A stretch of 64,000 bases of DNA from a virus (lineage: Duplodnaviria; Caudoviricetes), in the IMG/VR virus record IMGVR_UViG_3300031853_000021, positions 1 through 64,000 of that record, one strand, 5' to 3'. Position numbers and translations under genes: made by a program. Numbering within the stretch: position 1 is the first letter of the stretch; every line of letters starts with the position of its first letter. Positions 19,471 through 62,300 of this stretch are shown here, one piece after another. A model generated the notes under the pieces. That model made no database searches and was not told the origin of the DNA. It worked only from the letters and a program-made list of their open reading frames with translations.

Positions 19471-20694
19471 CTACTGGTCCAGCCGCTGATAAAATGCATT
19501 TATTTCCCTGGCGGTCCGCATCAGGTCATCTATGTGATACTTTTCAATCAGGCCGTCTGAATCCGTTTGAATGACATAGCTGTTATATGAGATAATCTTC
19601 CGCGCTCTATCTCGCCGCAGCGTGCCTGTTTCTGTCAGCTCCCTGTATCCTCTAATGAATTGTCTTCTTGCCCTCCGGAAGACGCGCCTGCGGATCGTGA
19701 TGTGCGTCCTGCTTATCCTGTATCCCGCCATGTCCAGCATCGGAACGCCGCGCTGCGCTTTTCCCGGAAGGCTTCGCCGTCGCTTTTCTTCTTCGATTGT
19801 CAGGATCTTGCTGATTCCGGATGTCGTCTTCAGTTCAATCCCCATTTTCTCCCGGAAGTATTTATCCAGATGCTTCGTCGCCCGTTTCATCCCTTTTATG
19901 GATCTGGACATCAGCGCGAAGTCATCCATGAAGGTGACGGTGCGGATCACGTACGGGATCTTCTTCCCGCGCCGCGTGGTTCCCTGTGCATACAGGTCGC
20001 GGATCGCGTAGGACATCGCGAAATTGAACAGCCAGGCATCGATGTACCCGCCGATGATCAGATGCCCGTCCGGCGCGATCCGTCCCAGATATTCCAGCAG
20101 GACGATCGCGGCCTTCGCTTTCGGGATCTCCTTCTTCAGGATGTCCACGCAGACCTGATACTTCAGCGTCGCGTATGCGTGGACGACGTCCGTCTTCTGG
20201 ATGTACCTGACGCCGACCGTCTCCTTCAGAAGGTATCTGTGCGCCTGATCCTTCAGCAGCGTCTGACCGCGTCCCGGAATGCTGGCGTGCTGCGTCGGCA
20301 GAAGCCGCGCGTTGATCAGCGGTTCGATCATCAGCTTTTCGATGTGTCCGATCAGCTGATGCAGGATGGACAACAGTGCGATGTCCCGTGTCTTCCCTGT
20401 CATGCCGTCCGGACGCTGGCGGATCGTCGGCGGCTCCATGTCGTCCGGTTCGATCCCGTATTCGACCAGATCTTCCACGACGCCGTACAGCATCAGCCCG
20501 ATCGAATGGATCGCTTCTTCCTTCACACGTCTGGATCCGGACAGATCGTCGATCAGGATTTCCGTCCTTCCGATTCCGGCGTACTTCTCGATGAATACCA
20601 GAATGTCGCGGTGCTTCCATTTGCTTTTGAAACATTCTTCGACTGCTTCTTCGCATAGCTTCAGGGACAGCTTCCTGTATCTCTTCGTGTGCAT
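19471..20694 (-). CDS. DGR reverse transcriptase (copy 1, 407 aa)
   Basis: RT blocks QHASIPGRG, YIQKTDV, GHLIIGG, TFMDDF, LDMAGYRI; adjacent TR/VR pair. Confidence 0.93.
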   Translation of the reverse strand: MHTKRYRKLSLKLCEEAVEECFKSKWKHRDILVFIEKYAGIGRTEILIDDLSGSRRVKEEAIHSIGLMLYGVVEDLVEYGIEPDDMEPPTIRQRPDGMTGKTRDIALLSILHQLIGHIEKLMIEPLINARLLPTQHASIPGRGQTLLKDQAHRYLLKETVGVRYIQKTDVVHAYATLKYQVCVDILKKEIPKAKAAIVLLEYLGRIAPDGHLIIGGYIDAWLFNFAMSYAIRDLYAQGTTRRGKKIPYVIRTVTFMDDFALMSRSIKGMKRATKHLDKYFREKMGIELKTTSGISKILTIEEEKRRRSLPGKAQRGVPMLDMAGYRISRTHITIRRRVFRRARRQFIRGYRELTETGTLRRDRARKIISYNSYVIQTDSDGLIEKYHIDDLMRTAREINAFYQRLDQ

Positions 20695-20699
20695 AATTC

Positions 20700-20885
20700 T
20701 TTATTTTGTGAAGCGGCGTTCGGTTGCGGTCTGACCTTAAAGCAGATCCGGCCTTGTTACTACTTGCCGCACGCGCAGCCCACAGCTGCGTGTTCCCCTT
20801 TCGAAGATTCCGGTTTTACTGATTTTTGCTTGCGCATGGATATGCAGACGCACATCAGCAGACTTTCGCCTGCCTTCATGAAAAT
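20700..20885 (-). ncRNA. DGR TR-to-RT spacer, structured RNA
   Basis: Sense-strand hairpins GCAGGC-GAAA-GTCTGC and GCAGC-TGTGG-GCTGC, plus AAGTAGTAA...CCGAACGCC before the RT start. Confidence 0.55.
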
Positions 20886-21029
20886 AAGTCGCGGACGGCT
20901 GTTCCAGTTCGCGTTACCGGGCGTGTTGTTGCCATTCTCGCACGCCAGCCCGGCATTCGCCCCGTTGTTCAAGTTCGCGAACCGCCACGGGCAGCGAACC
21001 CCGGCGGAGCCGGTACCGTTGAAGGCCGA
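20886..21029 (-). repeat. DGR template repeat (TR), copy 1
   Basis: Aligns ungapped to 21131-21274; rich in AAC/AAT codons (reads SAFNGTG..FANLNNGANAGLACENGNNTPGNANWNSRPRL). Confidence 0.95.
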
Positions 21030-21068
21030 TCCCGCGCCTGCATACCCTGTTTGTTTATAGTTACATCA

Positions 21069-21103
21069 GGGGACTTCCCCCTCTGGACGTCTTACGACGT
21101 CCA
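21069..21103 (-). other. Hairpins 3' of VR (DGR homing cis-element)
   Basis: Perfect 8-bp stem TGGACGTC-loop-GACGTCCA (21084-21103; sense loop GTAA includes the stop codon) and GGGG-4 nt-CCCC (21069-21080). Confidence 0.75.
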
Positions 21104-22801
21104 TTCACCCCGCTTTTTACCCGCTCCACAAAGCCGCGGACGGCTGCGCCAGCTCGCGTTACCGGGCGCGTTGTGGCCATACTCGCACGCCAGCCCGGCA
21201 AGCGCCCCGCTGTCCAAGGACGCGAACCGCCACCGGCAGCGAACCCCGGCGGAGCCGGGACCGCTGAAGGCCGACTTGAAGTAGGTCGTCGCTGATCCGC
21301 CGACCTCTTCCGGGAACAGGACGCCCTTCTTTGTCTTCATGAAGGACTTCACATAGTTCCAGCCGGATTTCATTCCTTCGTACAGCAGGCCAGTGTCTTC
21401 GTAGTTCGATGTCACGGATCCCGCCAGATTCTGACTGTCGCGGCATTCGTAGATCGAATAATCCCAATCAGACACAGCGTTCGCCGTGACGGTATAAAGC
21501 GGATCCAGGCCGACCGCATATGCGCCGTCCAGGACTTCCACGCCAGCCACACGAAGCGGCGACGTTCCATCCGTCAGCCCGTGCGGGCATCCGTCCTTCC
21601 TTCCCGGAAGAAGTTCTGTCGCGCCTGAATGCCACGGCATCGTCGAAATGTATGTCGTCGCTGTCGTGGTGAATGCGCTTTCCGTCTCTATGCCGACCGC
21701 TGCCAGTTCGTCGCCGTCGATCGTGACGGTTTCGATGGAACTGATCTTGACCAGATCCAGAATGTTCCGCATGTGTGCCTGTCCTCTGTCCTTGTTCGTG
21801 GACGATCCCATGTCGCCGATTGACACGGTCGAACCGACGATCAGGTTCGCGGCCTGCGTCGTCGACAGGATCACGCGCTTCACATTTTCTTCTGCCTTCG
21901 CTACCTGGTACTGTCTGTCGTAGCTGATGCAGCCGTTCGCGATGTTGCTGTTTTCCAGATCGAAGTGCCGCAGCTGCCACATCCGCAGGATCCATCTTGT
22001 ATCGCAGTCATTCCACAGTCCTTCATAGATCGTCATCTTCCGCGCCGCTGTGATGCCTGCGGTCGCGCTGGCGAAGTTGTACGGCCTGATGCCTGCGCCG
22101 GATGTCAGTGCGCCGCTGCTGTTCAGTCCGCCGGGGAATGAAGGATGCCATGTCAGCGCCCGCTTCGTTCCGTCCGGTGCGACATCCCCGGCGTCCGGAT
22201 AGAATCCCGCGCCTTTGGTCGTCCTGAAGCTGATGAAATTGAATGAACCGTCGTTCCATTCCTTGATCCACAATGCCAGCGCGAACGTCCAGACGGGCGC
22301 GTCTTCGCCTGTGATGTCGAAGCCGTCTTCGCCTTCGAAGTATGTGATGTTCATGGTTCCATCTTCCAGGGACATCGCATTCGCCCGGATGTACCATGTC
22401 ATCGGATCTTCGTCCGCCCAATCTTCGACGGCGGCATCGGATGCCGTGCACAGCTGCGCGGCGCTCTTTCCTTCCAGATCGTCCAGCGGCGTCATCGCCG
22501 TGTTTCCGGATACTGCTGCATCATAGCTTCGCAGCGTGTACGCCTTGCTGTTCCACGCCTGCGCCGCTGCTTTTGCGAATCTTTCAAGGATCTTATATTT
22601 GCTTGTCTCTCCTGCTGCCGCTGCGCGCGGATAGAATTCCCAGAAGACGCGCGTGGTGTTCGTTCCGTCCAGGACGCTTTTGCACGCCGCGTCAAGGACA
22701 GCCGCATCAGATGACCCGCCGTTCAGCGCGATCGATTCCAGCGCGGCGGCGATCCGTTCGTGCTGTGTCCACGAAGGGAAAATCAGATCCATGTCTGCCA
22801 T
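21092..22801 (-). CDS. DGR target protein (putative receptor-binding protein, C-terminal C-type-lectin-fold VR)
   Basis: VR encodes the last ~60 aa (FASLDSGALAGLACEYGHNAPGNASWRSRPRL); lies at the distal end of the tail operon. Confidence 0.9.
   Translation of the reverse strand: MADMDLIFPSWTQHERIAAALESIALNGGSSDAAVLDAACKSVLDGTNTTRVFWEFYPRAAAAGETSKYKILERFAKAAAQAWNSKAYTLRSYDAAVSGNTAMTPLDDLEGKSAAQLCTASDAAVEDWADEDPMTWYIRANAMSLEDGTMNITYFEGEDGFDITGEDAPVWTFALALWIKEWNDGSFNFISFRTTKGAGFYPDAGDVAPDGTKRALTWHPSFPGGLNSSGALTSGAGIRPYNFASATAGITAARKMTIYEGLWNDCDTRWILRMWQLRHFDLENSNIANGCISYDRQYQVAKAEENVKRVILSTTQAANLIVGSTVSIGDMGSSTNKDRGQAHMRNILDLVKISSIETVTIDGDELAAVGIETESAFTTTATTYISTMPWHSGATELLPGRKDGCPHGLTDGTSPLRVAGVEVLDGAYAVGLDPLYTVTANAVSDWDYSIYECRDSQNLAGSVTSNYEDTGLLYEGMKSGWNYVKSFMKTKKGVLFPEEVGGSATTYFKSAFSGPGSAGVRCRWRFASLDSGALAGLACEYGHNAPGNASWRSRPRLCGAGKKRGEWTS
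21131..21274 (-). repeat. DGR variable repeat (VR), copy 1
   Basis: 15 substitutions at TR adenines (A to G, C and T) and 1 non-adenine difference over 144 nt. Confidence 0.95.
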
Positions 22802-22816
22802 TTTCTTGTTCCTCCT

Positions 22817-23623
22817 TTATGCTGTGATCTTTGTCAGTGACATGTGCGGGACGCCCCGCTGCGCGTAGATCGCATACGCATATTTCACATCGTTGTCGCT
22901 GTCGTAGATGTACGACGCTTCATTGATCTGGCTTGCGATCTCCACGGCTTCGTTCGCCTTATTCAGGACGATCGTCGTGTTCTCCTGCCGCGTGTTCTCC
23001 GCTGTGACGCGTCCGTTCTCTGCGGTCACGCGGGCGTTCTCTGCTTCGACGCGGGCGTTCTCTGCGGTTACGCGGGCGTTCTCTGCGGTCACGCGGGCGT
23101 TCTCCGCATTTGCGCGGCTTGTCTCTGCGCTGACGCGCCTGTTCTCTGCCGTCTTTCTGGCGTTCTCTGCGGTCACGCGGGCGGCTTCCGCTTCCGCGTA
23201 TGCCTTCATGGTCGCGTCGAACAGTGACATTTCGTCGCCGGATATGATGGCGTCTTCATCCTTGACGCACGGTTCGATCTCGATTTCGAACGTGCAGGAC
23301 GTGATGACTTCGGTCATGTCCCCGGACTTCACTTCGATTTCTGCCAGTGCTGTCCCCGCTGCCGCCAGCGTCTGCGACGTCAGTTCCATCGTGACGACAG
23401 ACCCGGAAAACGTGCACGGCGAATATGCCCGCTTCAGATCCGGCTTCTTGATGTAGGCCGTGACGTTCGATCCGGGCGGGATCTCATATTCTTCGCCCTG
23501 ATTCAGCAGCTGGATTTCGACGTACCGCGTCGCCCTGTCGTGCTGCTTCGCCGATACCTGATACTGCTTCGTAGATCCTGACATCTCGATCTTCAGTCTT
23601 TTGATGACCCTGTTCAGGCTCAT
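22817..23623 (-). CDS. BppU-like baseplate/fibre adaptor with heptad coiled coil
   Basis: AKQHDRATRYVEIQL N-terminal domain; tandem AENARVT repeats. Confidence 0.75.
   Translation of the reverse strand: MSLNRVIKRLKIEMSGSTKQYQVSAKQHDRATRYVEIQLLNQGEEYEIPPGSNVTAYIKKPDLKRAYSPCTFSGSVVTMELTSQTLAAAGTALAEIEVKSGDMTEVITSCTFEIEIEPCVKDEDAIISGDEMSLFDATMKAYAEAEAARVTAENARKTAENRRVSAETSRANAENARVTAENARVTAENARVEAENARVTAENGRVTAENTRQENTTIVLNKANEAVEIASQINEASYIYDSDNDVKYAYAIYAQRGVPHMSLTKITA
22985..23182 (-). repeat. 21-bp coding tandem repeat (AENARVT heptads)
   Basis: Repeated GCGGGCGTTCTCTGCGGTCAC-like units. Confidence 0.85.
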
Positions 23624-23639
23624 GTCTGCATCCTCCTTT

Positions 23640-25148
23640 CTACAGTCCTAATTTTTCTATGATCTGCGCGATCGTGACTGTCTCCCCGTTCGGCTTCTCA
23701 AATTCGCACGTCCCCCGGAAGATCGCATTGAATGCGAAGTCCGCATAGTTTTCGCGCGTCGCTTTCGACCCGAAGGCCACGCCGCGCCCTCCATGCAGGA
23801 AGTGCATCAGATAGACCGCCGTCGACACGAAGTCGATCACCGTCACGGTGTTGAACTGGTCTTTCAGGACATACTTCACATCGTAGGAAAATTCCGTGTC
23901 CAGATCTCCGCCGCAGACTGCCGTCTTCCCTTCGCCCGGACTGATCGTCTTCGGTGTTCCGTATGTCCAGTTGCTTGTCAGCTTGTAGGCCACGGTCAGC
24001 GTCAGGCTGTTCTTCCCGTTGCACGTGCTGTATGTCGTGTCGGTCATCGCCAAAAAATAGACGCCTTCGTTCTCGATGGATCCGTCAGATCCGCAGCGCA
24101 TCGAATCGACCGACAGCGTCGGCGGATCATATTCGACGACCGTGATCCGGGCGGACTTCTCTGCCGTCCTGCCCCGCTGATCCTTGACCGTCACCGTGAT
24201 CGTCTTCACCCCGTAGTCTTCGAAGATCTTCGACGTCGGAAGTGACGTCGGCGTGCCCGTGTATGTCTTGTCGTCCACTTCCATCGCGACAGATACGATC
24301 GCGGATCCGTATGACGGCGTCACGCTCACGGCGGACAGGCCGACGTTCGACTGTTCTTCCACGAACATGTTCCACGATGCCGGGACGCGCCCGGCCTTGT
24401 CTGCGACCGTGACCGAATTGATCACCGGCACGCAGTCGTCCGGAACTGTCACTTTGATCTGTTTCGTGATAGTCTGATATACCTGTGTCCCGAAGATGCT
24501 TTCGATCTTCAGTGTCATCCACCCGAACGTCGAATCCGGAAGTTCTTCGTTCCACAGCTTCGGGATCTTGTAGCTGTTCGTGATCCGCGTCGCCTTCGCA
24601 GCCAGTTTCTTCGTGTTGCTGTATGTCTTATTCTTTAGCGTCCACGTGAACCTGTATGTCGCATCCGTCGTCAGTTTAATCGATGCGGAACTGTCGCCGC
24701 TTTCTACGTTCAGCGGGACTGATTCGTTTCCCGTGATCTCGATGTCTGACGCGCCCGGATCCCATTCGTAATATGTCAGGCGTCCCAGATCATAGAATGA
24801 CCGAACGCATTCAGACGGATCCGAAACAGGATTCGCTCCGTACTTTATCGTGAAGAATGGTTTGTTGATTACCAGCTTTGTCCCGATGTTCAGCGTGGCC
24901 TTCTGGACATATGTGACCCCCAGCACAGTCTTCTTTGCTTTGATCGTCCATCTGTACTGTTTCCCGTCGATGATTGTTACTGTAGGGAAGTCATCCGGCC
25001 CTACTGCCAGCGCCCACATATCATCGGGGACGTTCAGCGCGATCGATGTGATCGTCGTTGTGTCGCCTGATACGCTCCCCGACGCTGTCGCCGCTGCCTG
25101 AAATACCGAATCGGCTGTGATCGGAACGCTGAATGTTTTATTTGCCAT
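23640..25148 (-). CDS. Minor tail/baseplate protein (DUF859-like)
   Basis: VTVKDQRGRT, YDPPTL, RCGSDG, GRGVAFG C-terminus; position after the Tal-like gene. Confidence 0.7.
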   Translation of the reverse strand: MANKTFSVPITADSVFQAAATASGSVSGDTTTITSIALNVPDDMWALAVGPDDFPTVTIIDGKQYRWTIKAKKTVLGVTYVQKATLNIGTKLVINKPFFTIKYGANPVSDPSECVRSFYDLGRLTYYEWDPGASDIEITGNESVPLNVESGDSSASIKLTTDATYRFTWTLKNKTYSNTKKLAAKATRITNSYKIPKLWNEELPDSTFGWMTLKIESIFGTQVYQTITKQIKVTVPDDCVPVINSVTVADKAGRVPASWNMFVEEQSNVGLSAVSVTPSYGSAIVSVAMEVDDKTYTGTPTSLPTSKIFEDYGVKTITVTVKDQRGRTAEKSARITVVEYDPPTLSVDSMRCGSDGSIENEGVYFLAMTDTTYSTCNGKNSLTLTVAYKLTSNWTYGTPKTISPGEGKTAVCGGDLDTEFSYDVKYVLKDQFNTVTVIDFVSTAVYLMHFLHGGRGVAFGSKATRENYADFAFNAIFRGTCEFEKPNGETVTIAQIIEKLGL

Positions 25149-26877
25149 CTGCTGCCACCTCCATCCGGAAGACGCCGCTGTCGTCGATCAGCTGCTGATA
25201 TACAGCCGGTCGTGCCGCTGCCTTCCTGATCTTCGTTTGCAGGCGCAGCGTGTTCGCCGTCGCCGGTTCTTCTTCCTGCGCTTCCCTCCATTTGACACCC
25301 ATCCCGTACTGTGTGGATATGAAGTCGAAGTATCCGCCGTCCTCTGCCGCTCCGACAGACCATCGCCTGACAGCTTCGACGTTCAGGATGTGCAGCTTGT
25401 CGTACTGGATGTATGCGACCGGCGATCCGTCCTGTCTGAATTCCAGCCTTGTGTTCGACAGCATCGTGGAAAACGGCATCACGCCGCCGTCCTGCTTCTT
25501 GCCGATTTCAAGGCCGTCGTCAGTGTAATGGAAGTATGTTTCGTTCTCCTGTTTGAACGATTCCAGATCTTCGCCCTGCGCTGTGACCGTCTCTTCCATC
25601 GACCGGATCGAAATGTTCAAGTCGATGGATGTCTGTTCGATCATGGTCTGATATTCGTTCGTCATCTGCTCCACGGTCTTGTTGTTGGCATCGTCCGCGT
25701 ATAGCTTCGCGGCTTCCTCTGCCGCCGATGCCATATCCCGCGATTCTGTCCGGATCGCCTGGACGGATGTCGCGATCTTTTCTTCCGAAGATGTGATCGC
25801 CGCCTGGACTTCTTCGGTCGTCCAGTACCCGCCCCGCAGGATCCGCTTCGTCCTCGATTCAGACACGGACACGGCATCCGACAGTGTCTTTTCCTGCGTC
25901 TCCGTCTGGATCTGTTCGAACGTCTTCACGACGCTGGACAGTTCGCAAGTGTTCTTCTGCGGATCCTTCGGATATTCCGTCATCTTCACGATCCGCTGCT
26001 TCGTCCGCGTGTTCTCCGTCTTCGATACGATCCACACTGTATCGCCGATGTCGTAATCCAGAAGGCCGTATTCTTCAGACTGTGCCGCAAGATCTGCGAC
26101 GTCGGCAGTGTAGGCCGTGTACGGTCTGGACGCTGTTTCCAGCTTCGCCCGCGCGTCCTCGATCAGATTTTCCGTGATAGTGTACCGTTCATCTTTCCAG
26201 ATCTTCGGCACGATCTTGTCTGTGTACTGATGATTGTCGATGTACGGCACGCCGATCATGATTTCCGGCGTGATGCCATCCTTGCCGATCGGATAGATCC
26301 GCGTGTAGAAGTCGTACGTGTTCGACTTCACTGTCAGCTTCCGAAGGTTCAGCCCCTCCATGAAGTAGGCGCCGCGATCCGTTCCTATGTGCTCATATAG
26401 ATGGATCACCTTCCGGATGCTGTCTATGCTGCATTCGCACATGTACGTCTTCAGGACGTCCTGAAGGACATCCCACGCCGTGCACGTGTCTTCTATGTCG
26501 ACCGTCCGGCGCTTTGTGATCGTGCACGTGCCGACCGTCCATCCGGTTCCCTCGAATGCGAATTCAAGGCAAGCGCGCGCCGTCTGTGTCTCCGATGCGA
26601 ATCCATATGTGAATTCCTGCTGTTCCAGTTCCTCGATGTTCAGCTTCGCGACGTACCTGTTCTTCGTCGCCCCTGTCTCGATCTCCTTCAGGACGTATTC
26701 GTCTTCCTTCGTCCGGATGTAGTTTTCCGCTGCCAGTGCCGCGATCGCCGCGCCGTTCTTCGGATATGAAAACGACAGTTCCTTGTCCCCGGACGACAGC
26801 GTCTTTTCGATCTTCAGATCGTCCATCATGTCGATCGCCGCGATCCGCTTGTGCAGCGCGTCGTATATCTGGATCAT
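25138..26877 (-). CDS. Phage tail spike/Tal-like (endopeptidase family) protein
   Basis: TRIYPIGKDG, YDIGDTV and coiled-coil C-terminal half; follows Dit. Confidence 0.8.
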   Translation of the reverse strand: MIQIYDALHKRIAAIDMMDDLKIEKTLSSGDKELSFSYPKNGAAIAALAAENYIRTKEDEYVLKEIETGATKNRYVAKLNIEELEQQEFTYGFASETQTARACLEFAFEGTGWTVGTCTITKRRTVDIEDTCTAWDVLQDVLKTYMCECSIDSIRKVIHLYEHIGTDRGAYFMEGLNLRKLTVKSNTYDFYTRIYPIGKDGITPEIMIGVPYIDNHQYTDKIVPKIWKDERYTITENLIEDARAKLETASRPYTAYTADVADLAAQSEEYGLLDYDIGDTVWIVSKTENTRTKQRIVKMTEYPKDPQKNTCELSSVVKTFEQIQTETQEKTLSDAVSVSESRTKRILRGGYWTTEEVQAAITSSEEKIATSVQAIRTESRDMASAAEEAAKLYADDANNKTVEQMTNEYQTMIEQTSIDLNISIRSMEETVTAQGEDLESFKQENETYFHYTDDGLEIGKKQDGGVMPFSTMLSNTRLEFRQDGSPVAYIQYDKLHILNVEAVRRWSVGAAEDGGYFDFISTQYGMGVKWREAQEEEPATANTLRLQTKIRKAAARPAVYQQLIDDSGVFRMEVAADGK

Positions 26878-26890
26878 CCCGCTGCCCTCC

Positions 26891-27589
26891 TTACATCCAC
26901 ATCGGCGTGTACGTCAGCATCACCTTCGCAGATCCGGATGAAAATGTCAGATCGTTTTCGCCCGCTGCCAGGCGTGGGAACTGCCAGAACGACACCTGAT
27001 CGAAGGCGTTCTTCCCGTCGATCGTTGCCTTCCCGCTCCTGCCGTCGATGATCAGCGTCTTCCCTGCTGCCAGCGTCTCGACGATGTACGCTTCGTCGTT
27101 TAATGTGATCACGTAGTCCGTCAGCTGCTGCTTCGCCGTGACCGCCACAGCACACGGCGCGTCCTTGCTGCTTTCCACGAAGATCTGCCCGGACGTCTTC
27201 CCGTCGAATGTGATTTCCAGATCGTCATCGAAGAAATACCCGTCGATCGACAGTTCCAGAATCTTCTTCGACAGGTCCAGCGTCTTCGTCAGACTGTCGT
27301 CTGTCAGGTATGCTTTGTATTTGCCTTTGTATCCCTTGATCTCTTCCAGGACGGCAGACTGGCGGAACTGCATCATGAATCTTGATACAGTCCGCTGAAG
27401 TTCTGCCCGGTTCCTTGCGCGGAAGTAGATCGTCAGCTTCAGCGTTCCCAGCGGGATGTCTGTTTCGTACTCCGTCGGAAGCAGCGCCCGCTGGATCATC
27501 TCCTTCTGGACGCTGATCTTCGGCGGCTGTTCCTCGACCGTCAGCAGCTTCGCGCCGTATTCCCTGACGTCCACGCCGTTTACGATCAT
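26891..27589 (-). CDS. Distal tail protein (Dit-like)
   Basis: Position directly after the tape measure gene; FPRLAAGENDL C-terminus. Confidence 0.75.
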   Translation of the reverse strand: MIVNGVDVREYGAKLLTVEEQPPKISVQKEMIQRALLPTEYETDIPLGTLKLTIYFRARNRAELQRTVSRFMMQFRQSAVLEEIKGYKGKYKAYLTDDSLTKTLDLSKKILELSIDGYFFDDDLEITFDGKTSGQIFVESSKDAPCAVAVTAKQQLTDYVITLNDEAYIVETLAAGKTLIIDGRSGKATIDGKNAFDQVSFWQFPRLAAGENDLTFSSGSAKVMLTYTPMWM

Positions 27590-27602
27590 GTTTCATCCCT
27601 CC

Positions 27603-30600
27603 TTATCTCTTCCGCTGTATTTTGTTTACGAATTCATTTTCGACGCGTGTGTATACTCTTTCCGCGACGACATCGCCGTCCATCGTGACGTATACATACA
27701 CGACCGTCCCGCCTGTCAGTGCATCCAGCTTCTTGTCCAGCATGTCGCCCAGGCGATCATAGAACGCTTTCAGCGGCAGGATCGCTTCCGCTCCCGCTTC
27801 GCCGCCTGCCAGCAGTGTGTTCCCGGATGCTCCGAATACTGTCGGGCGTGTCATGATACCGCCGGATTTATACCAGCTGATCCCGAAGTGCGGGACTGAC
27901 GGCGGATTCAGACTGAAGTGTCCGGATATATACGGATGCGGCAGTGCCAGATGCGGCAGGCTCCAATGGAAGTTAAACTTCGACCGCATGGCGCTGATCG
28001 CATTCGCCACGGCCTGCTTCGCCGCATTGATCGGTCTTTCGATCGCCGACTTGATGGCGTTCCATCCGGAAGACGCCGCGCCCTTCATGCTGTTCCATGC
28101 CGACGACATCACGGACTTGATGCTGTTCATGACGGACTGGACTTTCGACTTCACCGCATTCACGGCGGACGTCACGCCTGACTTGATCGCATTCCATGCG
28201 GATGTCGTCGCGCTCTTCACTCCGTTCCACACGGACGTGATCGTGGTCTTTATCGCGTTGAAGATCGGCGTGACCGCTGTCTTGATCGCGTTCACTGCGG
28301 TCGTGACGGCTGTCTTGATCGCGTTCCAGACGGTCGATGTGGCTGTCTTGATCGCGTTCCAGACGGTCGACACCGTGGTCTTAATCGCGTTCATGACGGT
28401 CGTGATTACGGTCTTGATGCCGTTCCATACTGTGTCGATCACAGTTTTGATCGCCGTCATGACCGGCGTGATGATGTTGTCCTTCACGAAGTTCAGCGCC
28501 GTCGACACTGTGGTCTTGATCGCTTCCCATGCTGCCGTGATCGTCTCTTTGCAGTTCTCCCAGATGAACCGGAACGGAACCGTGATCAGCTGGAAGGCCG
28601 CGCTGATCAGTTCCACGATGAACATGATCGCGACCTGAATGACGCTTTTGATTCCTTCCCAGATCGTCGAAACTGTTTCCGCGACCGTCGTGAAGATCGT
28701 GCTGATCGTCGTCCAGACGGTCGTGCAGAATGTCGTGACGGTCGTGCTGATCGTTGTCCAGATCGTCGTGAAGAACGTGCTGATGCCGTTCCAGACGCCT
28801 TCGAAGAAGCCCTGCACGTTCGTCCACAGTTCTGTCCACGAAGTCCCGAACCATCCCAGGAAGACGTCTGCGACGCCCTGAAGCGCCGCCAGAACGCCGC
28901 TGAAGACGCCCTTGATGCCTTCCCAGACCGCGCCGAAGATCTCCTGCACGCCTGTCCACAGTTGTGTCCAGTTGCCGTTATATGCGCCGATGAACACGTC
29001 CAGCAGCCCCGTGATGACACCGAAGGCTGTTTCAAGTACCGTCGCTATGATTCCGAAGGCTGCTTCGAATACCGGCGCTAACAGGTTGCAGAAGCCGTCC
29101 CAGATGGCACTGATCGTCTGCGTGATCGACTGGAAGCTGATTCCCATCGCTGACAGCCTTTCCTGTATGCCGCCGACGAATTCCTGGAAGGCGCCTTTGA
29201 TCCGCTCCCAGATCGCGATGACCGCGTTCCGGAAGTCTTCGTTCGTCCTCCACAGATGGATGAATGCCGCCACCAGCACGGCGATGACGCCGATCACGAT
29301 TCCGATCGGCGATGTCAGGAAGCTGAACGCCGACGACAGTCCGGTCTGTGCCTTCGCAAGTATCCCGGATGCGCCGCCCGCTTTCGTGTACCACTCGACC
29401 ATGTTCCCGATCTGCGTGGACACCTGACCCGTGAATATGATCATTTTTCCCAGCGCGACCAGCAAAGGCCCTGCTGCCGCCACGACCAGGCCGATCCGGA
29501 TGATCGCCTGCTTCTGTCCTTCGTCCATGTTGTTCAGCTTGTCCACGAAGTCCTGAATCTTGCCGACGACTTCGCGGATCTTCGGCATCAGCAGTTCACC
29601 GAAGCTGATCGCCAGTTCTTCCAGCTGTGACTTCAGGATGGTCAGCTGTCCCTGTAGGTTGTCCTGCTGCACCTCTGCCATCTTTTCCGCCGCGCCGGAT
29701 GCGCCGCCGATCTTCGCGCGCAGATTGTCGAATGCTTCCCCTGAATCCTGGATCAGGAAGTTCGCACCGCGCAGTGAAGCCGTGTCGAAGATCTGCCCCA
29801 TGACGCTGTTGTAGTCCTCTTCGGACAGTTCGCCCAGCTTGCCCCGCAGATCTGTCAGAACGTCCTGAAGCGGCCTTGCCTTGCCCTCTGAATCGTAGGC
29901 GGACACACCCAGCGCATCCAGTGCGTCCTTCGCCGTCGATGTCGGCTGATACAGGTTCTTCAGGACACGCTGAAGCATGTTTCCGCCTTCAGCTGCGGAT
30001 ATATTGTGATTTCCCAGAATTCCCAGCGCTGTCGCTGTGTCTTCGAATGACTGGCCTGTGATGGATGCCTGGCCTGCTGCCTGTGCAAGTCCTGCGCCGA
30101 AGTCAGACACGGATCCCTTCGCACTGGATGCCGTGACCGCCAGAACGTCCGCGACCTTCGAAGCGTCTTCCGTCTTCATGCCGAAGCCGGACATGATGCC
30201 CGTCGCATAGTCTGCGGCCTGCGCGATGCCGATGTTGCCAGCCGCTGCCAGATTCAGCGTCGCAGGCAGCGCGGAATAGATGTCATCCGTGTCCATGCCT
30301 GCCATCGCAAGGATGTTGATCGCGTCCGCTGCTTCACTGGCGGAAAACTTTGTGTCCTTTCCCATCGTCCGCGCCAGCTTCGACAGCGCGTCCATCGTGT
30401 TGACCGTTTCGCCGTTCAGCTTCGACGTGGAATCCTTCGTCAGACCCATCGTCGCCTGAACCTGTGACATCGAAGCGTCGAAGTTCGCGGCAGTCTTCAC
30501 TGCTGCCGTTCCCAGTCCGACCGTCGCCATAGACGCGGGCATGATCGCTTCGCCGACCTTCGTGATCGTTCCGCCGATCTTGTTCGCCTTCTCTGCGTAG

Positions 30601-51559: not shown

Positions 51560-51608
51560 CCTTTCATGATTCAGCCTGCGCCGCTGCCGACGCAGGCCGT
51601 GTCGATCG

Positions 51609-51770
51609 TCATGCAGTCTTCACTTTTAGCTGATCGCGCATGATCTGCATTCCGATCATGATTCCTTTGACTTCTCTTTTCTCTTCTGCGGTCAGTCTCT
51701 TCAGCAGTTCCACGAACTCCTTCACATCGGCCTGCTGGTTCTCGACTTCCCTGTTCTTTTCTGCTGTCAT
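51609..51770 (-). CDS. Small conserved early protein (53 aa)
   Basis: Read manually as MTAEKNRE...ELLKRLTAEEKREVKGIMIGMQI; homolog of 10680-10874. Confidence 0.7.
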   Translation of the reverse strand: MTAEKNREVENQQADVKEFVELLKRLTAEEKREVKGIMIGMQIMRDQLKVKTA

Positions 51771-51787
51771 CTCCTTCACTCCTTTCT

Positions 51788-52099
51788 TTAGATCGTTGCG
51801 ATGATCATCACCAGCAGCATCACGATCGCCAATCCCATGACGATGTGTTCCATCACTGTCAGGCTGTCCGATTCCATGATGTCGTCATCGTCATCGATCA
51901 GCATGTTCGCCGCTTCGTTGATCTCTTCTGTTACGACCGCGATTTCTTCCGGCGTCAGCTGCATGGATTCAAACACGATCGCGCATCTGTTCTTCGCAGT
52001 GTCGATCCGGTCGCGGTCTGTCATCGGCTGCGGCTCCTGCCGCGCTTCCAGAACTGTCATCTGATCACCTTCCTTTCCTTTCCTGAATCGAATTTTCAT
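51788..52099 (-). CDS. Hypothetical protein with C-terminal TM helix
   Basis: Ends IVMGLAIVMLLVMIIATI; start may be internal. Confidence 0.55.
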   Translation of the reverse strand: MKIRFRKGKEGDQMTVLEARQEPQPMTDRDRIDTAKNRCAIVFESMQLTPEEIAVVTEEINEAANMLIDDDDDIMESDSLTVMEHIVMGLAIVMLLVMIIATI

Positions 52100-52215: not shown

Positions 52216-52695
52216 ATGAACAGCAGATTAAAAGACATTCGGAAGGCTCTTCGCCTTACGCAAAAAGAATTCGCTGCACGATTAGGAATCACCGACAGCG
52301 GGATTTCCAGACTTGAAAAAGGACAGAACCAGCTGACGGATCAGCTGATCCGCGCGATCTGCCGCGAATACAAAGTGAACTATGAATATCTGAAGAACGG
52401 CATCGGCGAAATGTTTTCGGATGTGCCGCAGACAGTCGTCGATGAACTGTGTGAACAGTACGATCTGGATGACTTCGATCGGATCATGCTTCAGGAATAT
52501 CTGAAGATGGACGAAGCGTCCCGGAATGTTCTGAAGACTTACATCCGGAAGATCTGCGGGCAGATCTCCGAAGCCGAAGACACGCAGGCGAAGATCGACG
52601 CTGAAGTCGAAGCGTACCGGCAGGAACTGGAACTTGAAGCAAGTCAGGCGGAAAAATCATCAGCTTCCGACACGCCTGCCGAAAATATGGCATAA
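52216..52695 (+). CDS. CI-like XRE repressor B (no peptidase domain)
   Basis: RLKDIRKALRLTQKEFAARLGITDSGISRLEKG HTH. Confidence 0.9.
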   Translation: MNSRLKDIRKALRLTQKEFAARLGITDSGISRLEKGQNQLTDQLIRAICREYKVNYEYLKNGIGEMFSDVPQTVVDELCEQYDLDDFDRIMLQEYLKMDEASRNVLKTYIRKICGQISEAEDTQAKIDAEVEAYRQELELEASQAEKSSASDTPAENMA

Positions 52696-55173: not shown

Positions 55174-56631
55174 TCATACCTTCTTCAGGTATGCGGAAGA
55201 ACTGAATCCTGTATATGTCACGCCATTCAGTTCGAACTGAATGTACAGCCACTTCACGCCGTTCGCCGTGCTGTAGTATCCATAGCAGTGAACCTTCGTT
55301 CCGGCAGGCATACAGCACAGCGCCTTCTTGTTTGTTCCGGCATCGTTTCGACAGTACAGATCCGCCGTCGCTGTATATGCCCCGGGCAGTCTGGCGTCCT
55401 TCCCGCGCGCGTAACACGTGGATGTGACTTCCTTCTTTCCGGATGTCTGCTTCGCCGGTTCCTGCTTCTTCGCGGTCGTGCCGTTCAGGATCTCGTTCAC
55501 CCTCTTCTGCACTGCTGCCGGATCGTAGCCCTTCGCCTTCAGGTTCGCCACTCTGTCGGATCCGTTGCCCCACAGTCCAGTGATGACTTCGCGGGCGATC
55601 GTGTCGACGCTCTTTCCGGCCTTGCGCTGATCGCTTTCCGCCTTCACTGTGTTGTCTGTATAGTGCGGCGTGATGAATCCGCGGATGAATCTTCCGTTGA
55701 TGCTGACCGTGCGCTTCTTCACGCTGTCGGAATAGTTTCCTTCAGTGACGACGAAGTACCCGGCGGATCTGTTCACATAGGTCACTGTGCCGATGTGATC
55801 CGGCGCGCCGTGGTTGTCTCCTGATCCGGAATCCTCCCAGTCGTACAGAACAGCGTCGCCGATGTTCGGAACGTAGTCGTCCGCTTCCTGCCAGCATCCC
55901 ATCTTCTTCGCTTCTTCGATGATGTAATAGCAGCTGATTTCGACGGGCATCACTGCCGTGTATCCCAGCTTCTTCGCGATCGCCGACCATGTAGCCGCGC
56001 ACCACGGCCACGAATACAGCATCTTTGTCCCGCGCGGGAACGGTTCTTTGCTATTGTAAATGTCGATGATCACCTTGAAGGATCCGTCCGATTCCTTCAG
56101 GCCGACCCATGCTTCCGCCTGATCAGCGACTTTCTGTCTTGAATATCCCACTTTGACATCTTCCTTTCCTGCGTTTTTGTCGTACTGCGTCAGGTTGTAC
56201 TGCCTGACCAGCTTCATCAGATTGTCGACGTACGTGCTGGATGTCGCATAGCCGTCGGCCTTGATGTTTTCCAGGTACTGCTGCGGATCCGTGACGCCGC
56301 GCAGATTCCTGTATCTGTCCAGCTGAATGAATTCGAAGTATCCGCGCACGCCCTCTTCCATGCTGTCATACACGCGGAAGTTGTCGCGGATCTGCGTGTG
56401 CACGCCCGGCGTGTACTCTTCGCTGGTCTTCATGTTCACCGGCTTCCCTGTCCACCTTGTTCCGCACTTCAGTCCGAAATAGTTATGATACAGGGAAGCA
56501 AGTTTCGATTCGCCCCATCCGGATTCAAGGATCGCCTGCGCGATGATCGGCGAATGCACCATGATCCCGTACACGTAGGCGTACTTCTCGACATATCCCG
56601 CGATCCGCTCGATGAACTCTGTCTTCTTCAT
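55174..56631 (-). CDS. Modular endolysin: GH73 glucosaminidase + CHAP + CW_7 + SH3b
   Basis: AQAILESGWG/NYFGLK/YATS; PWCAA/DHIG/EGN; REVITGLWGNGSDR; SH3b-like C-terminus. Confidence 0.9.
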   Translation of the reverse strand: MKKTEFIERIAGYVEKYAYVYGIMVHSPIIAQAILESGWGESKLASLYHNYFGLKCGTRWTGKPVNMKTSEEYTPGVHTQIRDNFRVYDSMEEGVRGYFEFIQLDRYRNLRGVTDPQQYLENIKADGYATSSTYVDNLMKLVRQYNLTQYDKNAGKEDVKVGYSRQKVADQAEAWVGLKESDGSFKVIIDIYNSKEPFPRGTKMLYSWPWCAATWSAIAKKLGYTAVMPVEISCYYIIEEAKKMGCWQEADDYVPNIGDAVLYDWEDSGSGDNHGAPDHIGTVTYVNRSAGYFVVTEGNYSDSVKKRTVSINGRFIRGFITPHYTDNTVKAESDQRKAGKSVDTIAREVITGLWGNGSDRVANLKAKGYDPAAVQKRVNEILNGTTAKKQEPAKQTSGKKEVTSTCYARGKDARLPGAYTATADLYCRNDAGTNKKALCCMPAGTKVHCYGYYSTANGVKWLYIQFELNGVTYTGFSSSAYLKKV

Positions 56632-58128: not shown

Positions 58129-59371
58129 GCAGCCACTCCTTTCTTTTCTGCTGATCCAGCCGCTGATAGAGTCCCTGAACCTGTTCAGCCATCTTGATCA
58201 GTTCTTCCACGTGGTACTTTTCCTTCAGCCCGTGCGCGTCGGTCTGCTGCACGTAGCTGTTGTACGATATGATTTTCTGTGCACGATCCCGCCGCAGTGT
58301 TCCCGTTTTCTTCAGCTCTCTGTATCCTCTGATCAGCTGCCTTCGTGCCCTCCGGAAGACGCGCCTGCGGATCGTGATGTGCGTCCTGCTGATCCTGTAT
58401 CCCGCCATGTCCAGCATCGGGACGCCACGCTGCGCTTTTCCCGGAAGGCTCCGTCGTCGCTTCTCTTCTTCGATCGTCAGTATCTTACTGATTCCGGATG
58501 TCGTCTTCAGTTCGATTCCCATTTCCTTCCGGAAGTATTTGTCCAGGCGCTTCGTCGCCCGCTTCAGTCCTTTGACGGATCCAGACATCAGCGCGAAGTC
58601 GTCCATGAAGGTGACGACGCGGATCACGTACGGGATCTTCTTCCCGCGCCGTGTGGTTCCCTGTGCGTACAGGTCGCGGATCGCGTAGGACATCGCGAAA
58701 TTGAACAGCCAGGCGTCGATGTACCCGCCGATGATCAGATGCCCGTCCGGTGCGATCCGTCCCAGATATTCCAGCAGGGCGATCGCGGCCTTCGCCTTCG
58801 GGATCTCCTTCTTCAGGATGTCCACGCAGACCTGATACTTCAGCGTCGCGTATGCGTGGACGACGTCCGTCTTCTGGATGTACCTGACGCCGACCGTCTC
58901 CTTCAGAAGGTATCTGTGCGCCTGATCCTTCAGCAGCGTCTGACCGCGTCCCGGAATGCTGGCGTGCTGCGTCGGCAGAAGCCGCGCGTTGATCAGCGGT
59001 TCGATCATCAGCTTTTCGATGTGTCCGATCAGCTGATGCAGGATGGACAACAGTGCGATGTCCCGTGTCTTCCCTGTCATGCCGTCCGGACGCTGGCGGA
59101 TCGTCGGCGGCTCCATGTCGTCCGGTTCGATCCCGTATTCGACCAGATCTTCCACGACGCCGTACAGCATCAGCCCGATCGAATGGATCGCTTCTTCCTT
59201 CACACGTCTGGATCCGGACAGATCGTCGATCAGGATTTCCGTCCTTCCGATTCCGGCGTACTTCTCGATGAATACCAGAATGTCGCGGTGCTTCCATTTG
59301 CTTTTGAAACATTCTTCGACTGCTTCTTCGCATAGCTTCAGGGACAGCTTCCTGTATCTCTTCGTGTGCAT
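57983..59371 (-). CDS. DGR reverse transcriptase (copy 2, 462 aa through loss of the stop codon)
   Basis: Same motifs as copy 1; CAG replaces TAG after YQRLDQ. Confidence 0.92.
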   Translation of the reverse strand: MHTKRYRKLSLKLCEEAVEECFKSKWKHRDILVFIEKYAGIGRTEILIDDLSGSRRVKEEAIHSIGLMLYGVVEDLVEYGIEPDDMEPPTIRQRPDGMTGKTRDIALLSILHQLIGHIEKLMIEPLINARLLPTQHASIPGRGQTLLKDQAHRYLLKETVGVRYIQKTDVVHAYATLKYQVCVDILKKEIPKAKAAIALLEYLGRIAPDGHLIIGGYIDAWLFNFAMSYAIRDLYAQGTTRRGKKIPYVIRVVTFMDDFALMSGSVKGLKRATKRLDKYFRKEMGIELKTTSGISKILTIEEEKRRRSLPGKAQRGVPMLDMAGYRISRTHITIRRRVFRRARRQLIRGYRELKKTGTLRRDRAQKIISYNSYVQQTDAHGLKEKYHVEELIKMAEQVQGLYQRLDQQKRKEWLHVLQERRGRDAAEGDAGTSAGREDLRPSCGQYPAVQTGGSAGSDDVPF

Positions 59372-59562
59372 AATTCTTTATTTTGTGAAGCGGCGTTCGG
59401 TTGCGGTCTGACCTTAAAGCAGATCCGGCCTTGTTACTACTTGCCGCACGCGCAGCCCACAGCTGCGTGTTCCCCTTTCGAAGATTCCGGTTTTACTGAT
59501 TTTTGCTTGCGCATGGATATGCAGACGCACATCAGCAGACTTTCGCCTGCCTTCATGAAAAT

Positions 59563-59706
59563 AAGTCGCGGACGGCTGTTCCAGTTCGCGTTACCGGGCG
59601 TGTTGTTGCCATTCTCGCACGCCAGCCCGGCATTCGCCCCGTTGTTCAAGTTCGCGAACCGCCACGGGCAGCGAACCCCGGCGGAGCCGGTACCGTTGAA
59701 GGCCGA
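59563..59706 (-). repeat. DGR template repeat (TR), copy 2
   Basis: Same sequence as 20886-21029. Confidence 0.95.
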
Positions 59707-59768
59707 TCCCGCGCCTGCATACCCTGTTTGTTTATAGTTACATCAGGGGACTTCCCCCTCTGGACGTC

Positions 59769-61478
59769 TTACGACGTCCATTCACCCCGCTTTTTACCCG
59801 CTCCACAAAGCCGCGGACGGCTGCGCCAGCTCGCGTTACCGGGCGCGTTGTGGCCATACTCGCACGCCAGCCCGGCAAGCGCCCCGCTGTCCAAGGACGC
59901 GAACCGCCACCGGCAGCGAACCCCGGCGGAGCCGGGACCGCTGAAGGCCGACTTGAAGTAGGTCGTCGCTGATCCGCCGACCTCTTCCGGGAACAGGACG
60001 CCCTTCTTTGTCTTCATGAAGGACTTCACATAGTTCCAGCCGGATTTCATTCCTTCGTACAGCAGGCCAGTGTCTTCGTAGTTCGATGTCACGGATCCCG
60101 CCAGATTCTGACTGTCGCGGCATTCGTAGATCGAATAATCCCAATCAGACACAGCGTTCGCCGTGACGGTATAAAGCGGATCCAGGCCGACCGCATATGC
60201 GCCGTCCAGGACTTCCACGCCAGCCACACGAAGCGGCGACGTTCCATCCGTCAGCCCGTGCGGGCATCCGTCCTTCCTTCCCGGAAGAAGTTCTGTCGCG
60301 CCTGAATGCCACGGCATCGTCGAAATGTATGTCGTCGCTGTCGTGGTGAATGCGCTTTCCGTCTCTATGCCGACCGCTGCCAGTTCGTCGCCGTCGATCG
60401 TGACGGTTTCGATGGAACTGATCTTGACCAGATCCAGAATGTTCCGCATGTGTGCCTGTCCTCTGTCCTTGTTCGTGGACGATCCCATGTCGCCGATTGA
60501 CACGGTCGAACCGACGATCAGGTTCGCGGCCTGCGTCGTCGACAGGATCACGCGCTTCACATTTTCTTCTGCCTTCGCTACCTGGTACTGTCTGTCGTAG
60601 CTGATGCAGCCGTTCGCGATGTTGCTGTTTTCCAGATCGAAGTGCCGCAGCTGCCACATCCGCAGGATCCATCTTGTATCGCAGTCATTCCACAGTCCTT
60701 CATAGATCGTCATCTTCCGCGCCGCTGTGATGCCTGCGGTCGCGCTGGCGAAGTTGTACGGCCTGATGCCTGCGCCGGATGTCAGTGCGCCGCTGCTGTT
60801 CAGTCCGCCGGGGAATGAAGGATGCCATGTCAGCGCCCGCTTCGTTCCGTCCGGTGCGACATCCCCGGCGTCCGGATAGAATCCCGCGCCTTTGGTCGTC
60901 CTGAAGCTGATGAAATTGAATGAACCGTCGTTCCATTCCTTGATCCACAATGCCAGCGCGAACGTCCAGACGGGCGCGTCTTCGCCTGTGATGTCGAAGC
61001 CGTCTTCGCCTTCGAAGTATGTGATGTTCATGGTTCCATCTTCCAGGGACATCGCATTCGCCCGGATGTACCATGTCATCGGATCTTCGTCCGCCCAATC
61101 TTCGACGGCGGCATCGGATGCCGTGCACAGCTGCGCGGCGCTCTTTCCTTCCAGATCGTCCAGCGGCGTCATCGCCGTGTTTCCGGATACTGCTGCATCA
61201 TAGCTTCGCAGCGTGTACGCCTTGCTGTTCCACGCCTGCGCCGCTGCTTTTGCGAATCTTTCAAGGATCTTATATTTGCTTGTCTCTCCTGCTGCCGCTG
61301 CGCGCGGATAGAATTCCCAGAAGACGCGCGTGGTGTTCGTTCCGTCCAGGACGCTTTTGCACGCCGCGTCAAGGACAGCCGCATCAGATGACCCGCCGTT
61401 CAGCGCGATCGATTCCAGCGCGGCGGCGATCCGTTCGTGCTGTGTCCACGAAGGGAAAATCAGATCCATGTCTGCCAT
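59769..61478 (-). CDS. DGR target protein, copy 2
   Basis: 569-aa translation identical to 21092-22801. Confidence 0.9.
   Translation of the reverse strand: MADMDLIFPSWTQHERIAAALESIALNGGSSDAAVLDAACKSVLDGTNTTRVFWEFYPRAAAAGETSKYKILERFAKAAAQAWNSKAYTLRSYDAAVSGNTAMTPLDDLEGKSAAQLCTASDAAVEDWADEDPMTWYIRANAMSLEDGTMNITYFEGEDGFDITGEDAPVWTFALALWIKEWNDGSFNFISFRTTKGAGFYPDAGDVAPDGTKRALTWHPSFPGGLNSSGALTSGAGIRPYNFASATAGITAARKMTIYEGLWNDCDTRWILRMWQLRHFDLENSNIANGCISYDRQYQVAKAEENVKRVILSTTQAANLIVGSTVSIGDMGSSTNKDRGQAHMRNILDLVKISSIETVTIDGDELAAVGIETESAFTTTATTYISTMPWHSGATELLPGRKDGCPHGLTDGTSPLRVAGVEVLDGAYAVGLDPLYTVTANAVSDWDYSIYECRDSQNLAGSVTSNYEDTGLLYEGMKSGWNYVKSFMKTKKGVLFPEEVGGSATTYFKSAFSGPGSAGVRCRWRFASLDSGALAGLACEYGHNAPGNASWRSRPRLCGAGKKRGEWTS
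59808..59951 (-). repeat. DGR variable repeat (VR), copy 2
   Basis: Same sequence as 21131-21274. Confidence 0.95.
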
Positions 61479-61493
61479 TTTCTTGTTCCTCCT

Positions 61494-62300
61494 TTATGCT
61501 GTGATCTTTGTCAGTGACATGTGCGGGACGCCCCGCTGCGCGTAGATCGCATACGCATATTTCACATCGTTGTCGCTGTCGTAGATGTACGACGCTTCAT
61601 TGATCTGGCTTGCGATCTCCACGGCTTCGTTCGCCTTATTCAGGACGATCGTCGTGTTCTCCTGCCGCGTGTTCTCCGCTGTGACGCGTCCGTTCTCTGC
61701 GGTCACGCGGGCGTTCTCTGCTTCGACGCGGGCGTTCTCTGCGGTTACGCGGGCGTTCTCTGCGGTCACGCGGGCGTTCTCCGCATTTGCGCGGCTTGTC
61801 TCTGCGCTGACGCGCCTGTTCTCTGCCGTCTTTCTGGCGTTCTCTGCGGTCACGCGGGCGGCTTCCGCTTCCGCGTATGCCTTCATGGTCGCGTCGAACA
61901 GTGACATTTCGTCGCCGGATATGATGGCGTCTTCATCCTTGACGCACGGTTCGATCTCGATTTCGAACGTGCAGGACGTGATGACTTCGGTCATGTCCCC
62001 GGACTTCACTTCGATTTCTGCCAGTGCTGTCCCCGCTGCCGCCAGCGTCTGCGATGCCAGTTCCATCGTGACGACGGAACCCTCAAACGTACACGGAGAA
62101 TATGCGCGTGTCAGGTCCGGCTTTTTGATGTAGGCCGTGACGTTTGATCCCGCCGGGATCTCGTAGGCCGCGCCGTTGTCCAACAGTTCCACTTCGACGT
62201 ACCTGGTCGCCCTGTCGTGCTGTTTTGCTGATACCTGGTACTGTTTTGTGGATCCGGACATTTCTATCTTCAGGCGTTTGATCACTCTGTTCAGGCTCAT
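61494..62300 (-). CDS. BppU-like baseplate/fibre adaptor
   Basis: C-terminal two thirds identical to 22817-23623; N-terminus diverged. Confidence 0.75.
   Translation of the reverse strand: MSLNRVIKRLKIEMSGSTKQYQVSAKQHDRATRYVEVELLDNGAAYEIPAGSNVTAYIKKPDLTRAYSPCTFEGSVVTMELASQTLAAAGTALAEIEVKSGDMTEVITSCTFEIEIEPCVKDEDAIISGDEMSLFDATMKAYAEAEAARVTAENARKTAENRRVSAETSRANAENARVTAENARVTAENARVEAENARVTAENGRVTAENTRQENTTIVLNKANEAVEIASQINEASYIYDSDNDVKYAYAIYAQRGVPHMSLTKITA

Follow-up and report, generated by a model that had tools for sequence, protein, structure and literature searches.

Two copies of one diversity-generating retroelement (DGR) cassette, each embedded in a phage gene set of its own, occur in the 78,688-bp IMG/VR record IMGVR_UViG_3300031853_000021, which is a single contig of a tailed virus. 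This raises the question whether the record represents one fused molecule or two phages joined during assembly. The window analysed here is the first 64,000 nucleotides of this contig, which is filed as 'linear' and 100% complete; positions beyond 64,000 are given as positions of the record. We consider it probable that the 78.7-kb record is an assembler's walk through two separate, co-occurring temperate phages of 39-40 kb that share one cassette. The geometry of the repeat, the nature of the contig ends, the pairing of sequences across the cassette in relatives, and the behavior of the variable repeat of the retroelement all bear on this reading.

Repeat geometry, contig ends and arm pairing

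The repeat comprises positions 20120-23377 and 58797-62054, is 3258 bp long without a mismatch, and cannot be extended by one base on either side. Its period is 38,677 bp. Apart from a 103-bp run that lies within a tandem repeat of 99-bp period in the tape-measure gene of the second unit, no other exact match between the units exceeds 83 bp anywhere in the record. The repeat is genuine and chance would not produce it, as aligned late regions elsewhere are only about 78-85% identical. At the repeat offset the flanks, from about 19000 to 24600, are 74-98% identical. The right edge is abrupt, with mismatches at 23378, 23380 and 23399 followed by about 20% divergence; at the left edge the mismatches are sparse at first (20119, 20102, 20074, 20038) and then dense. 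In a self-comparison of the record, units A (1-39918) and B (39919-78688) prove collinear, with about 83-85% nucleotide identity in the late regions and patchy identity of 66-76% in the early regions. Exact repetition is confined to the 3258 bp, or 4% of the contig, and the two laps are 66-85% identical overall. An earlier note on this DNA had described the two cassette copies as identical, including the variable repeat, the genes on either side as merely homologous, and the 38,677 bp between the copies as one phage gene set. The alignment, which has no differences inside the repeat and divergence directly outside both edges, and the full collinear gene set found within one period bear this description out. 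The sequence past position 64000 was also followed, and it continues through head genes and meets position 1 by a 12-nt overlap, with closure at 78,676 bp; the prediction had been 78-80 kb.

Each unit contains a complete HK97-like siphovirus gene set, from the terminase gene TerS to Dit, tail endopeptidase, DUF859 protein, adaptor, DGR and lysis genes, and each carries on the plus strand a lysogeny module formed by a helix-turn-helix (HTH) repressor and a large serine recombinase. The repressors of the two units share 55% amino acid identity and the serine integrases 21%, while late genes are about 80-85% identical in nucleotides. Units A and B belong to two different phages, which are probably heteroimmune and use separate integration sites. 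Nine close relatives, at about 95-98% nucleotide identity, were drawn from IMG/VR and metagenome contigs. The early genes of unit A are 97% identical to one of these (G001) and those of unit B 96.7% identical to another, the closed circle G002. The record is about twice as long as complete relatives (78,688 bp versus 38,998 bp for G002 minus its terminal repeat and 40,016 bp for the circle in G001).

The record begins and ends with the same 12-mer, TCCACGGATGAG (cosY), which lies 111 nt upstream of TerS of unit B. A variant 12-mer, TCCACAGAATAG (cosX), is read through in the interior of the contig and lies 101 nt upstream of TerS of unit A. At both sites the 12-mer is preceded by the 18-nt motif TTTTCGTGGGGA(G/T)TTTTC, motif and 12-mer together occupying 39901-39930 in the window and 78659-78688 in the record. 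A scan of IMG/VR for this motif returned 15 contigs (L026-L040). Two contigs from other samples, G003 (21,442 bp) and G004 (17,081 bp), begin exactly at the outer base of the 12-mer, G003 at cosX and G004 at cosY. Because they independently start at the same nucleotide, the sequence indicates that the termini of the record are physical cohesive (cos) ends and not a random cut of a circle. The 12-nt end overlap was not made by an assembler, since 12 nt is no assembler's k-mer overlap; going by standard library chemistry, the terminal duplication of the 12-mer could have arisen through end repair. G001 reads through the cosY 12-mer with a single copy, and the self-alignment of the record reaches both of its ends. 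Direct terminal repeats are recognized by CheckV only from at least 20 bp (PMC8116208), and the 12-nt overlap falls below this limit, so that the record was filed as linear. Closure of the record over 12 nt does not show that a cointegrate exists. As a separate observation, the 12-mer that follows the conserved 18-nt motif varies by lineage (TCCACGGATGAG, TCCACAGAATAG, TCCACGGAAAAG, TCCACGGAAAGG, TCCACGGAGAAG), which makes this position a candidate cos site with lineage-specific cohesive ends.

For a description of the possible molecules the contig can be divided into four arms around the cassette (C). L1 is the sequence left of copy 1 back to cosY, and R1 the stretch between copy 1 and cosX; L2 lies between cosX and copy 2, and R2 between copy 2 and cosY. 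The R1-cosX-L2 join is unique contiguous sequence in the contig. The R2-cosY-L1 join follows from the 12-nt end overlap and is contiguous in G001. In the assembled sequence the ambiguity is confined to the pairing across the 3258-bp repeat. With the pairing as written (L1-C-R1 and L2-C-R2) the sole closed molecule is the 78.7-kb dimer; with the alternative pairing (L2-C-R1 and L1-C-R2) there are two circles, called phage X and phage Y below.

All six single-lap relatives (G002, G003, G005, L053, L054 and L055) have the arrangement R1-C-L2. G002, with 39,110 bp and a 112-bp terminal repeat, is a closed circle that is collinear with X throughout at 96-97% identity, and L053 comes from a contig of 39,127 bp. 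In the other five the left flanks are 98-100% identical to L2 versus 67-86% to L1, and the right flanks 94-99% identical to R1 versus 54-90% to R2. Whole-contig identities had given G003 as R1-C-L1, an assignment that was rejected when windowed identity gave 99% to L2 and 86% to L1 for its left flank. The only relative with R1-C-L1 is G001 (IMGVR_UViG_3300021256_000142, loci L042-L044), a contig of 49,462 bp that is filed as linear and 100% complete and itself exceeds one genome length. Its departure from G002, at about 20128 in its own numbering, coincides with the left edge seen in the contig studied here; from there it continues as L1-cosY-R2 and breaks off after 504 nt of the cassette, with its positions 9360-9446 recurring as its final 87 nt. 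Because its R1 and cassette part is identical to G002 outside the variable repeat and its tail re-enters its own sequence, G001 reads as a rho-shaped walk, in which a 9.4-kb spur of X type leads into a circle of Y type (R2-C-L1) that closes at 40,016 bp. The pairing R2-C-L2 was seen in no relative, and a search for further relatives of R2 or L1 type gave only G001, G004 and one fragment of 5.8 kb. In L002, a 4-kb contig from another sample, the right flank is R2-like and the near-left flank L1-like; an L1 contig from that sample stops where L002 starts. Complete relatives measure about 38-41 kb, a range into which the predicted lengths of X (38,677 bp) and Y (39,999 bp) fall.

The diversity-generating retroelement and its variable repeat

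The template repeat (TR) and the variable repeat (VR) differ at 16 positions, and 15 of these are adenines in the TR; the remaining change in this VR is a TR C that appears as G. The VR sits 39 nt upstream of the stop codon of the target open reading frame (ORF). Between the target gene and the gene of the reverse transcriptase (RT) there is a gap of 397 nt (20695-21091), of which the TR takes 144 nt. The first 191 codons of the RT gene of unit A are inside the repeat, the boundary of which falls within this gene, and the two RTs are 93% identical. The assignment of both to the RVT_1 domain is weak in terms of profile scores. No Pfam family was matched by the target protein. An avd gene is common in DGRs, though not universal; Pfam, PHROG and NCBIfam searches with the short ORFs near the TR and the RT recognized none.

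Comparison of the nine relatives reveals how the two repeats evolve. The TR is identical over all 144 positions in each of them, and there are eight distinct VRs with differences almost exclusively at TR adenine sites. G001, in its first 12.2 kb, and G002 represent one X strain and have no differences there outside the VR, yet their VRs differ at 13 aligned positions. VR turnover is therefore much faster than the background. Minor observations on the VRs are that the one of L054 has one change at a position other than an adenine, that the one of G001 is shorter than the TR by a deletion of 3 nt, and that L004 and L055, from different record sets, carry the same VR. Judged by its sequence, the cassette is a genuine, working-type DGR. 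Phages that replicate separately for any time should differ in their VR. The identical VR in both laps is what would be expected if one assembled node was written twice, and as a sign of a very recent transfer it carries little weight.

The arrangement resembles that of the BPP-1 DGR (mtd-avd-TR-brt) in the order of a target with a VR at its 3' end, a TR and an RT, in the adenine-specific substitutions, and in the target being a tail protein of a temperate phage. It differs in that no Avd was recognized between VR and RT or beside the RT, in the weak score of the RT to RVT_1, in a target without a Pfam family, and in a host of the Clostridia type.

Origin of the double-length contig

The reading that we prefer can be formulated as follows. 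The sample would have held two related temperate siphoviruses of the cos type with a Clostridia host. Phage X would correspond to 20120-58796, a circle of 38,677 bp with arm R1, cosX and the early and lysogeny arm L2; phage Y would correspond to 58797-78676 of the record plus 1-20119, which is 39,999 bp with arm R2, cosY and arm L1. They would have different repressors and serine integrases and in common a 3.26-kb cassette that is identical or near-identical. In the assembly graph two cycles would then meet at one node, the cassette, and the deposited contig would be a walk from the cos end of Y through L1, the cassette, R1, cosX, L2, the cassette again and R2 to the other cos end of Y. If two cycles have one node in common and one of them is opened at a physical end, exactly one walk takes every edge, and this walk is L1-C-R1-L2-C-R2. 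We infer that across the cassette the arms are paired in the source sample as in the two monomers. Heads of the HK97-like type have a limited capacity, and a capsid of this type would presumably not hold 78.7 kb.

Two-lap contigs do arise for this phage group, since in ODMR01000253.1 (76,882 bp, human gut; L061 and L095) a 72%-identical relative occurs twice, about 38.2 kb apart, and the 21.9-kb stretches compared are 100% identical. This homodimer contig is most likely an assembly concatemer. The phenomenon is not confined to one group: in the CheckV study 290 IMG/VR contigs exceeded twice their expected length and were judged probable assembly artefacts (Nayfach et al. 2020, PMC8116208). The present record resembles the concatenated contigs described there in being about twice as long as complete relatives and in having the gene set present twice. 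Unlike them it contains laps from two different phages, so that it can be regarded as a hetero-concatemer variant, which the k-mer-frequency check would not flag. Quality checks built on k-mers and on terminal repeats are blind to such a contig. A record that is filed as one linear, 100%-complete virus and most likely contains two genomes can distort statistics on genome size, clustering and gene content.

Several considerations weigh against this explanation. The pairing across the cassette in the source sample has been inferred from sequence. None of the relatives is from that sample, their identity is no higher than 95-98%, and in a mosaic family in which the end points of exchange vary by sample, a recombinant pairing in this particular sample is possible. 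Had the contig been assembled from long reads, a repeat of 3.3 kb would pose no difficulty and the join would be credible. Virion DNA from both phages might have been expected to give a break at cosX in addition to the one at cosY. Finally, the argument from capsid capacity draws on general knowledge of HK97-like heads only.

A first alternative is compatible with the walk through two phages and concerns the cassette itself. The cassettes of X and Y may not be strictly identical, the assembler having merged close variants (for example 0.1-1% apart, with different VRs) into one consensus node. The variation of the VR among relatives, even between G001 and G002, would fit this, as would the loss of variant information at DGR targets that is common in metagenome assembly (bioRxiv 10.1101/2024.11.15.621889). 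However, the isolated single-nucleotide differences at 20119, 20102, 20074 and 20038 were kept apart in the two laps, so that sparse differences were not flattened there, and the abrupt step to about 20% divergence at the right edge is as for a true recombination edge. We regard such merging as a tentative option, of real but minor probability.

The joined arrangement could also have existed as a transient molecule. X and Y would then co-replicate after co-infection or co-induction and recombine in the cassette, giving hetero-concatemers with all four pairings that are neither a packaged nor an inherited form. X-type and Y-type sequences with a common cassette do co-occur in at least two samples, the present one and that of G001, and in several further samples contigs are interrupted close to the edges of the cassette, at varying points, which suggests recurrent exchange between co-occurring variants. 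Yet there is no direct evidence that X and Y were in one host cell, and such a molecule cannot be told by sequence from two monomers, as short-read graphs are the same under both. This makes a transient recombinant an unlikely, though not far-fetched, source of the contig.

The third alternative is a genuine, maintained cointegrate, in which the X circle recombined into Y via the cassette to form a 78.7-kb heterodimer with two DGRs, existing as an episome or as a tandem prophage. A single crossover would give exactly this geometry, with a complete circle between direct repeats and closure at 78,676 bp, and G001, from another sample, also runs R1-C-L1 and then L1-cosY-R2. The likeness to a Campbell-type cointegrate is that a complete circular genome is bounded by direct repeats of a shared segment. 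The difference is that here the cos ends and the relatives favor two separate circles. The contig appears to end at cos sites where the 12-mer was filled in, and a head for 38-41 kb should not take up a cos-ended molecule twice as long as one unit. As G003 has its end at cosX, that site should be cut in a dimer as well, and direct repeats of 3.3 kb would soon resolve through recombination. The pairing is the opposite one in all six single-lap relatives. G001, as a rho-shaped contig with an R1 and cassette part identical to the closed X circle G002 outside the VR, represents a walk and no independent support. We consider a maintained cointegrate very improbable. A tandem prophage in particular was rejected, as there are no host flanks and the contig ends at cos.

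The earlier note had favored a real cointegrate with two DGRs. This is not supported, in view of the cos ends, of the R1-C-L2 arrangement of the six relatives and of the Y-type circle in G001. Its description of a structure made by a single crossover between two circles remains valid for the geometry and the closure but not for a real fused molecule, since relatives carry the alternative pairing. The caveat it attached, that an assembler bridging the repeat would give the same picture, turned out to be the better explanation in view of the cos ends, the pairing in relatives and the identity of the VR.

Probable cassette exchange and features of the two units

The sharing of the cassette does not depend on how the contig arose. 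In the contig the same cassette sequence borders on both left arms (L1 and L2) and on both right arms (R1 and R2), and it had rightly been anticipated that the shared cassette would be real even if the assembly bridged it. The sequence data support that the receptor-binding and diversification module is the same, or nearly so, in two phages whose repressors and integrases differ; the tail genes next to it are only about 75-90% identical between them. The suggestion of a recent transfer of a host-range module between heteroimmune phages holds for a shared module that was exchanged; the identity of the VR does not serve as a sign of recency. The cassette was presumably exchanged between the two lineages by homologous recombination. 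The limits of the shared block differ by sample, being 20120-23377 here, about 20129 to about 22874 in the sample of G001 and about 19592-23620 in that of L002, and between samples the cassette differs by 1-3%, as the arms do. These comparisons point to recurrent homologous exchange at the cassette, which would act as a hinge between alternative structural and lysogeny arms. Homogenization between co-resident phages may be continuing.

An extension of this idea is that X and Y meet in the same cells, for example as co-resident prophages with different integrases, that ongoing recombination or gene conversion keeps the cassette identical, and that the heterodimer is a recombination intermediate. 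Under this scheme copies of the cassette from one sample would be identical, and copies from different samples would differ by 1-3%. We consider this rather doubtful. If true, a hypermutation module would be undergoing concerted evolution in two heteroimmune phages. The rightmost 500 nt of the cassette are 97.2% identical to four R1-linked copies (G002, G005, L053 and the first lap of G001), 95.4-96.4% to G003, L004, L054 and L055, and 93.6-95.0% to three R2-linked copies (the second lap of G001, G004 and L002). The naming of a donor lineage was considered and rejected, since identity differences over 500 nt are too weak to claim a direction of transfer.

Modular mosaicism, with exchange of tail, host-range and lysogeny modules, is known from temperate siphoviruses of the lambdoid type. 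The similarity to lambdoid mosaicism lies in the gene-internal step from 100% to about 80% identity, the reassortment of arms among relatives and the sample-specific end points; the difference is that the unit exchanged here is a whole DGR cassette, which comprises the C-terminal part of the adaptor, the target, the TR and the 5' half of the RT gene, with a boundary within the latter. Module exchange between related temperate phages is textbook knowledge, and DGRs move as cohesive units. The shared cassette is ordinary phage mosaicism and as a discovery it is modest. What the family offers is a DGR cassette with an invariant TR and a fast-changing VR at a recurrent recombination junction. Since X and Y carry the same receptor-binding module, they probably compete for the same receptor, and if the identity within the sample is true, they would form a tractable natural case of host-range module sharing.

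The coordinates of the features discussed are collected in Table 1.

Table 1. Features of the record, with positions in the window unless the record is named
Feature	Position	Strand	Basis or remark
cosY 12-mer TCCACGGATGAG	1-12, again 78677-78688 of record		contig ends, identical
Early/replication genes, unit A (far part of arm L1)	13-10803	-	ORF map
HTH (cI-like) repressor A	11037-11525	+	Pfam HTH_3/HTH_19
Large serine recombinase (integrase) A, 557 aa	12175-13848	+	Pfam Resolvase, Recombinase, Zn_ribbon_recom
Lysis-region genes, unit A: GH114-like, GH25 muramidase, 605-aa protein with CW_7 repeat	13930-17427	-	Pfam
DGR reverse transcriptase A, 407 aa	19471-20694	-	RVT_1 E 2.5e-6, 27.8 bits, under gathering cut-off 29.6
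Repeat copy 1 (cassette C)	20120-23377		exact identity to 58797-62054
Template repeat (TR), 144 bp	20886-21029	-	TR/VR comparison
DGR target, tail protein, 569 aa	21092-22801	-	phrog_17147 and phrog_5302 'tail protein'
Variable repeat (VR), 144 bp	21131-21274	-	3' end of target gene
BppU_N-type baseplate adaptor A	22817-23623	-	Pfam BppU_N; C-terminal part inside repeat
Arm R1, unit A: DUF859 tail protein, tail endopeptidase, Dit, tape measure, major tail, major head, protease, portal, TerL, TerS	23640-39818	-	Pfam, PHROGs
cosX 12-mer TCCACAGAATAG	39919-39930		internal, read through in contig
Early/replication genes, unit B (far part of arm L2)	39942-52099	-	ORF map
HTH repressor B	52216-52695	+	Pfam
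Serine recombinase (integrase) B, 468 aa	53222-54628	+	Pfam
Endolysin B (glucosaminidase and CW_7)	55174-56631	-	Pfam
DGR reverse transcriptase B, 462 aa	57983-59371	-	RVT_1 E 2.7e-5, under Pfam gathering cut-off
Repeat copy 2	58797-62054		TR 59563-59706, VR 59808-59951, target 59769-61478
Baseplate adaptor B, flank 73-98% identical to unit A	61494-62300	-	ORF map
Arm R2 start, tail genes of unit B	62317-64000	-	continues to TerS B, record 78053-78577

No tRNA genes were found. A search of the GenBank phage collection gave only one fragment, from human faeces, with 74% identity, and a scan of genome contigs detected neither a close host genome nor a tandem prophage, only prophages at 72% identity. 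Prophages with a 72%-identical DGR target occur in Fusicatenibacter faecihominis, Hominifimenecus microfluidus and a metagenome-assembled genome of the Eubacteriaceae (L050-L052). Their distribution suggests that the wider phage group has Lachnospiraceae-like hosts.

Outside the shared cassette the units differ in some smaller respects. The C-terminus of the RT of unit B extends 55 amino acids beyond that of unit A (462 versus 407 aa), and unit A has a separate ORF of 143 aa at 19068-19499, without family hits, that overlaps the 3' end of its RT gene. The tape-measure gene of unit B contains tandem repeats of 99-bp period beyond the window, at 66652-67206 of the record, and the counterpart in unit A at 28043-28331 matches them at only 67-79%.

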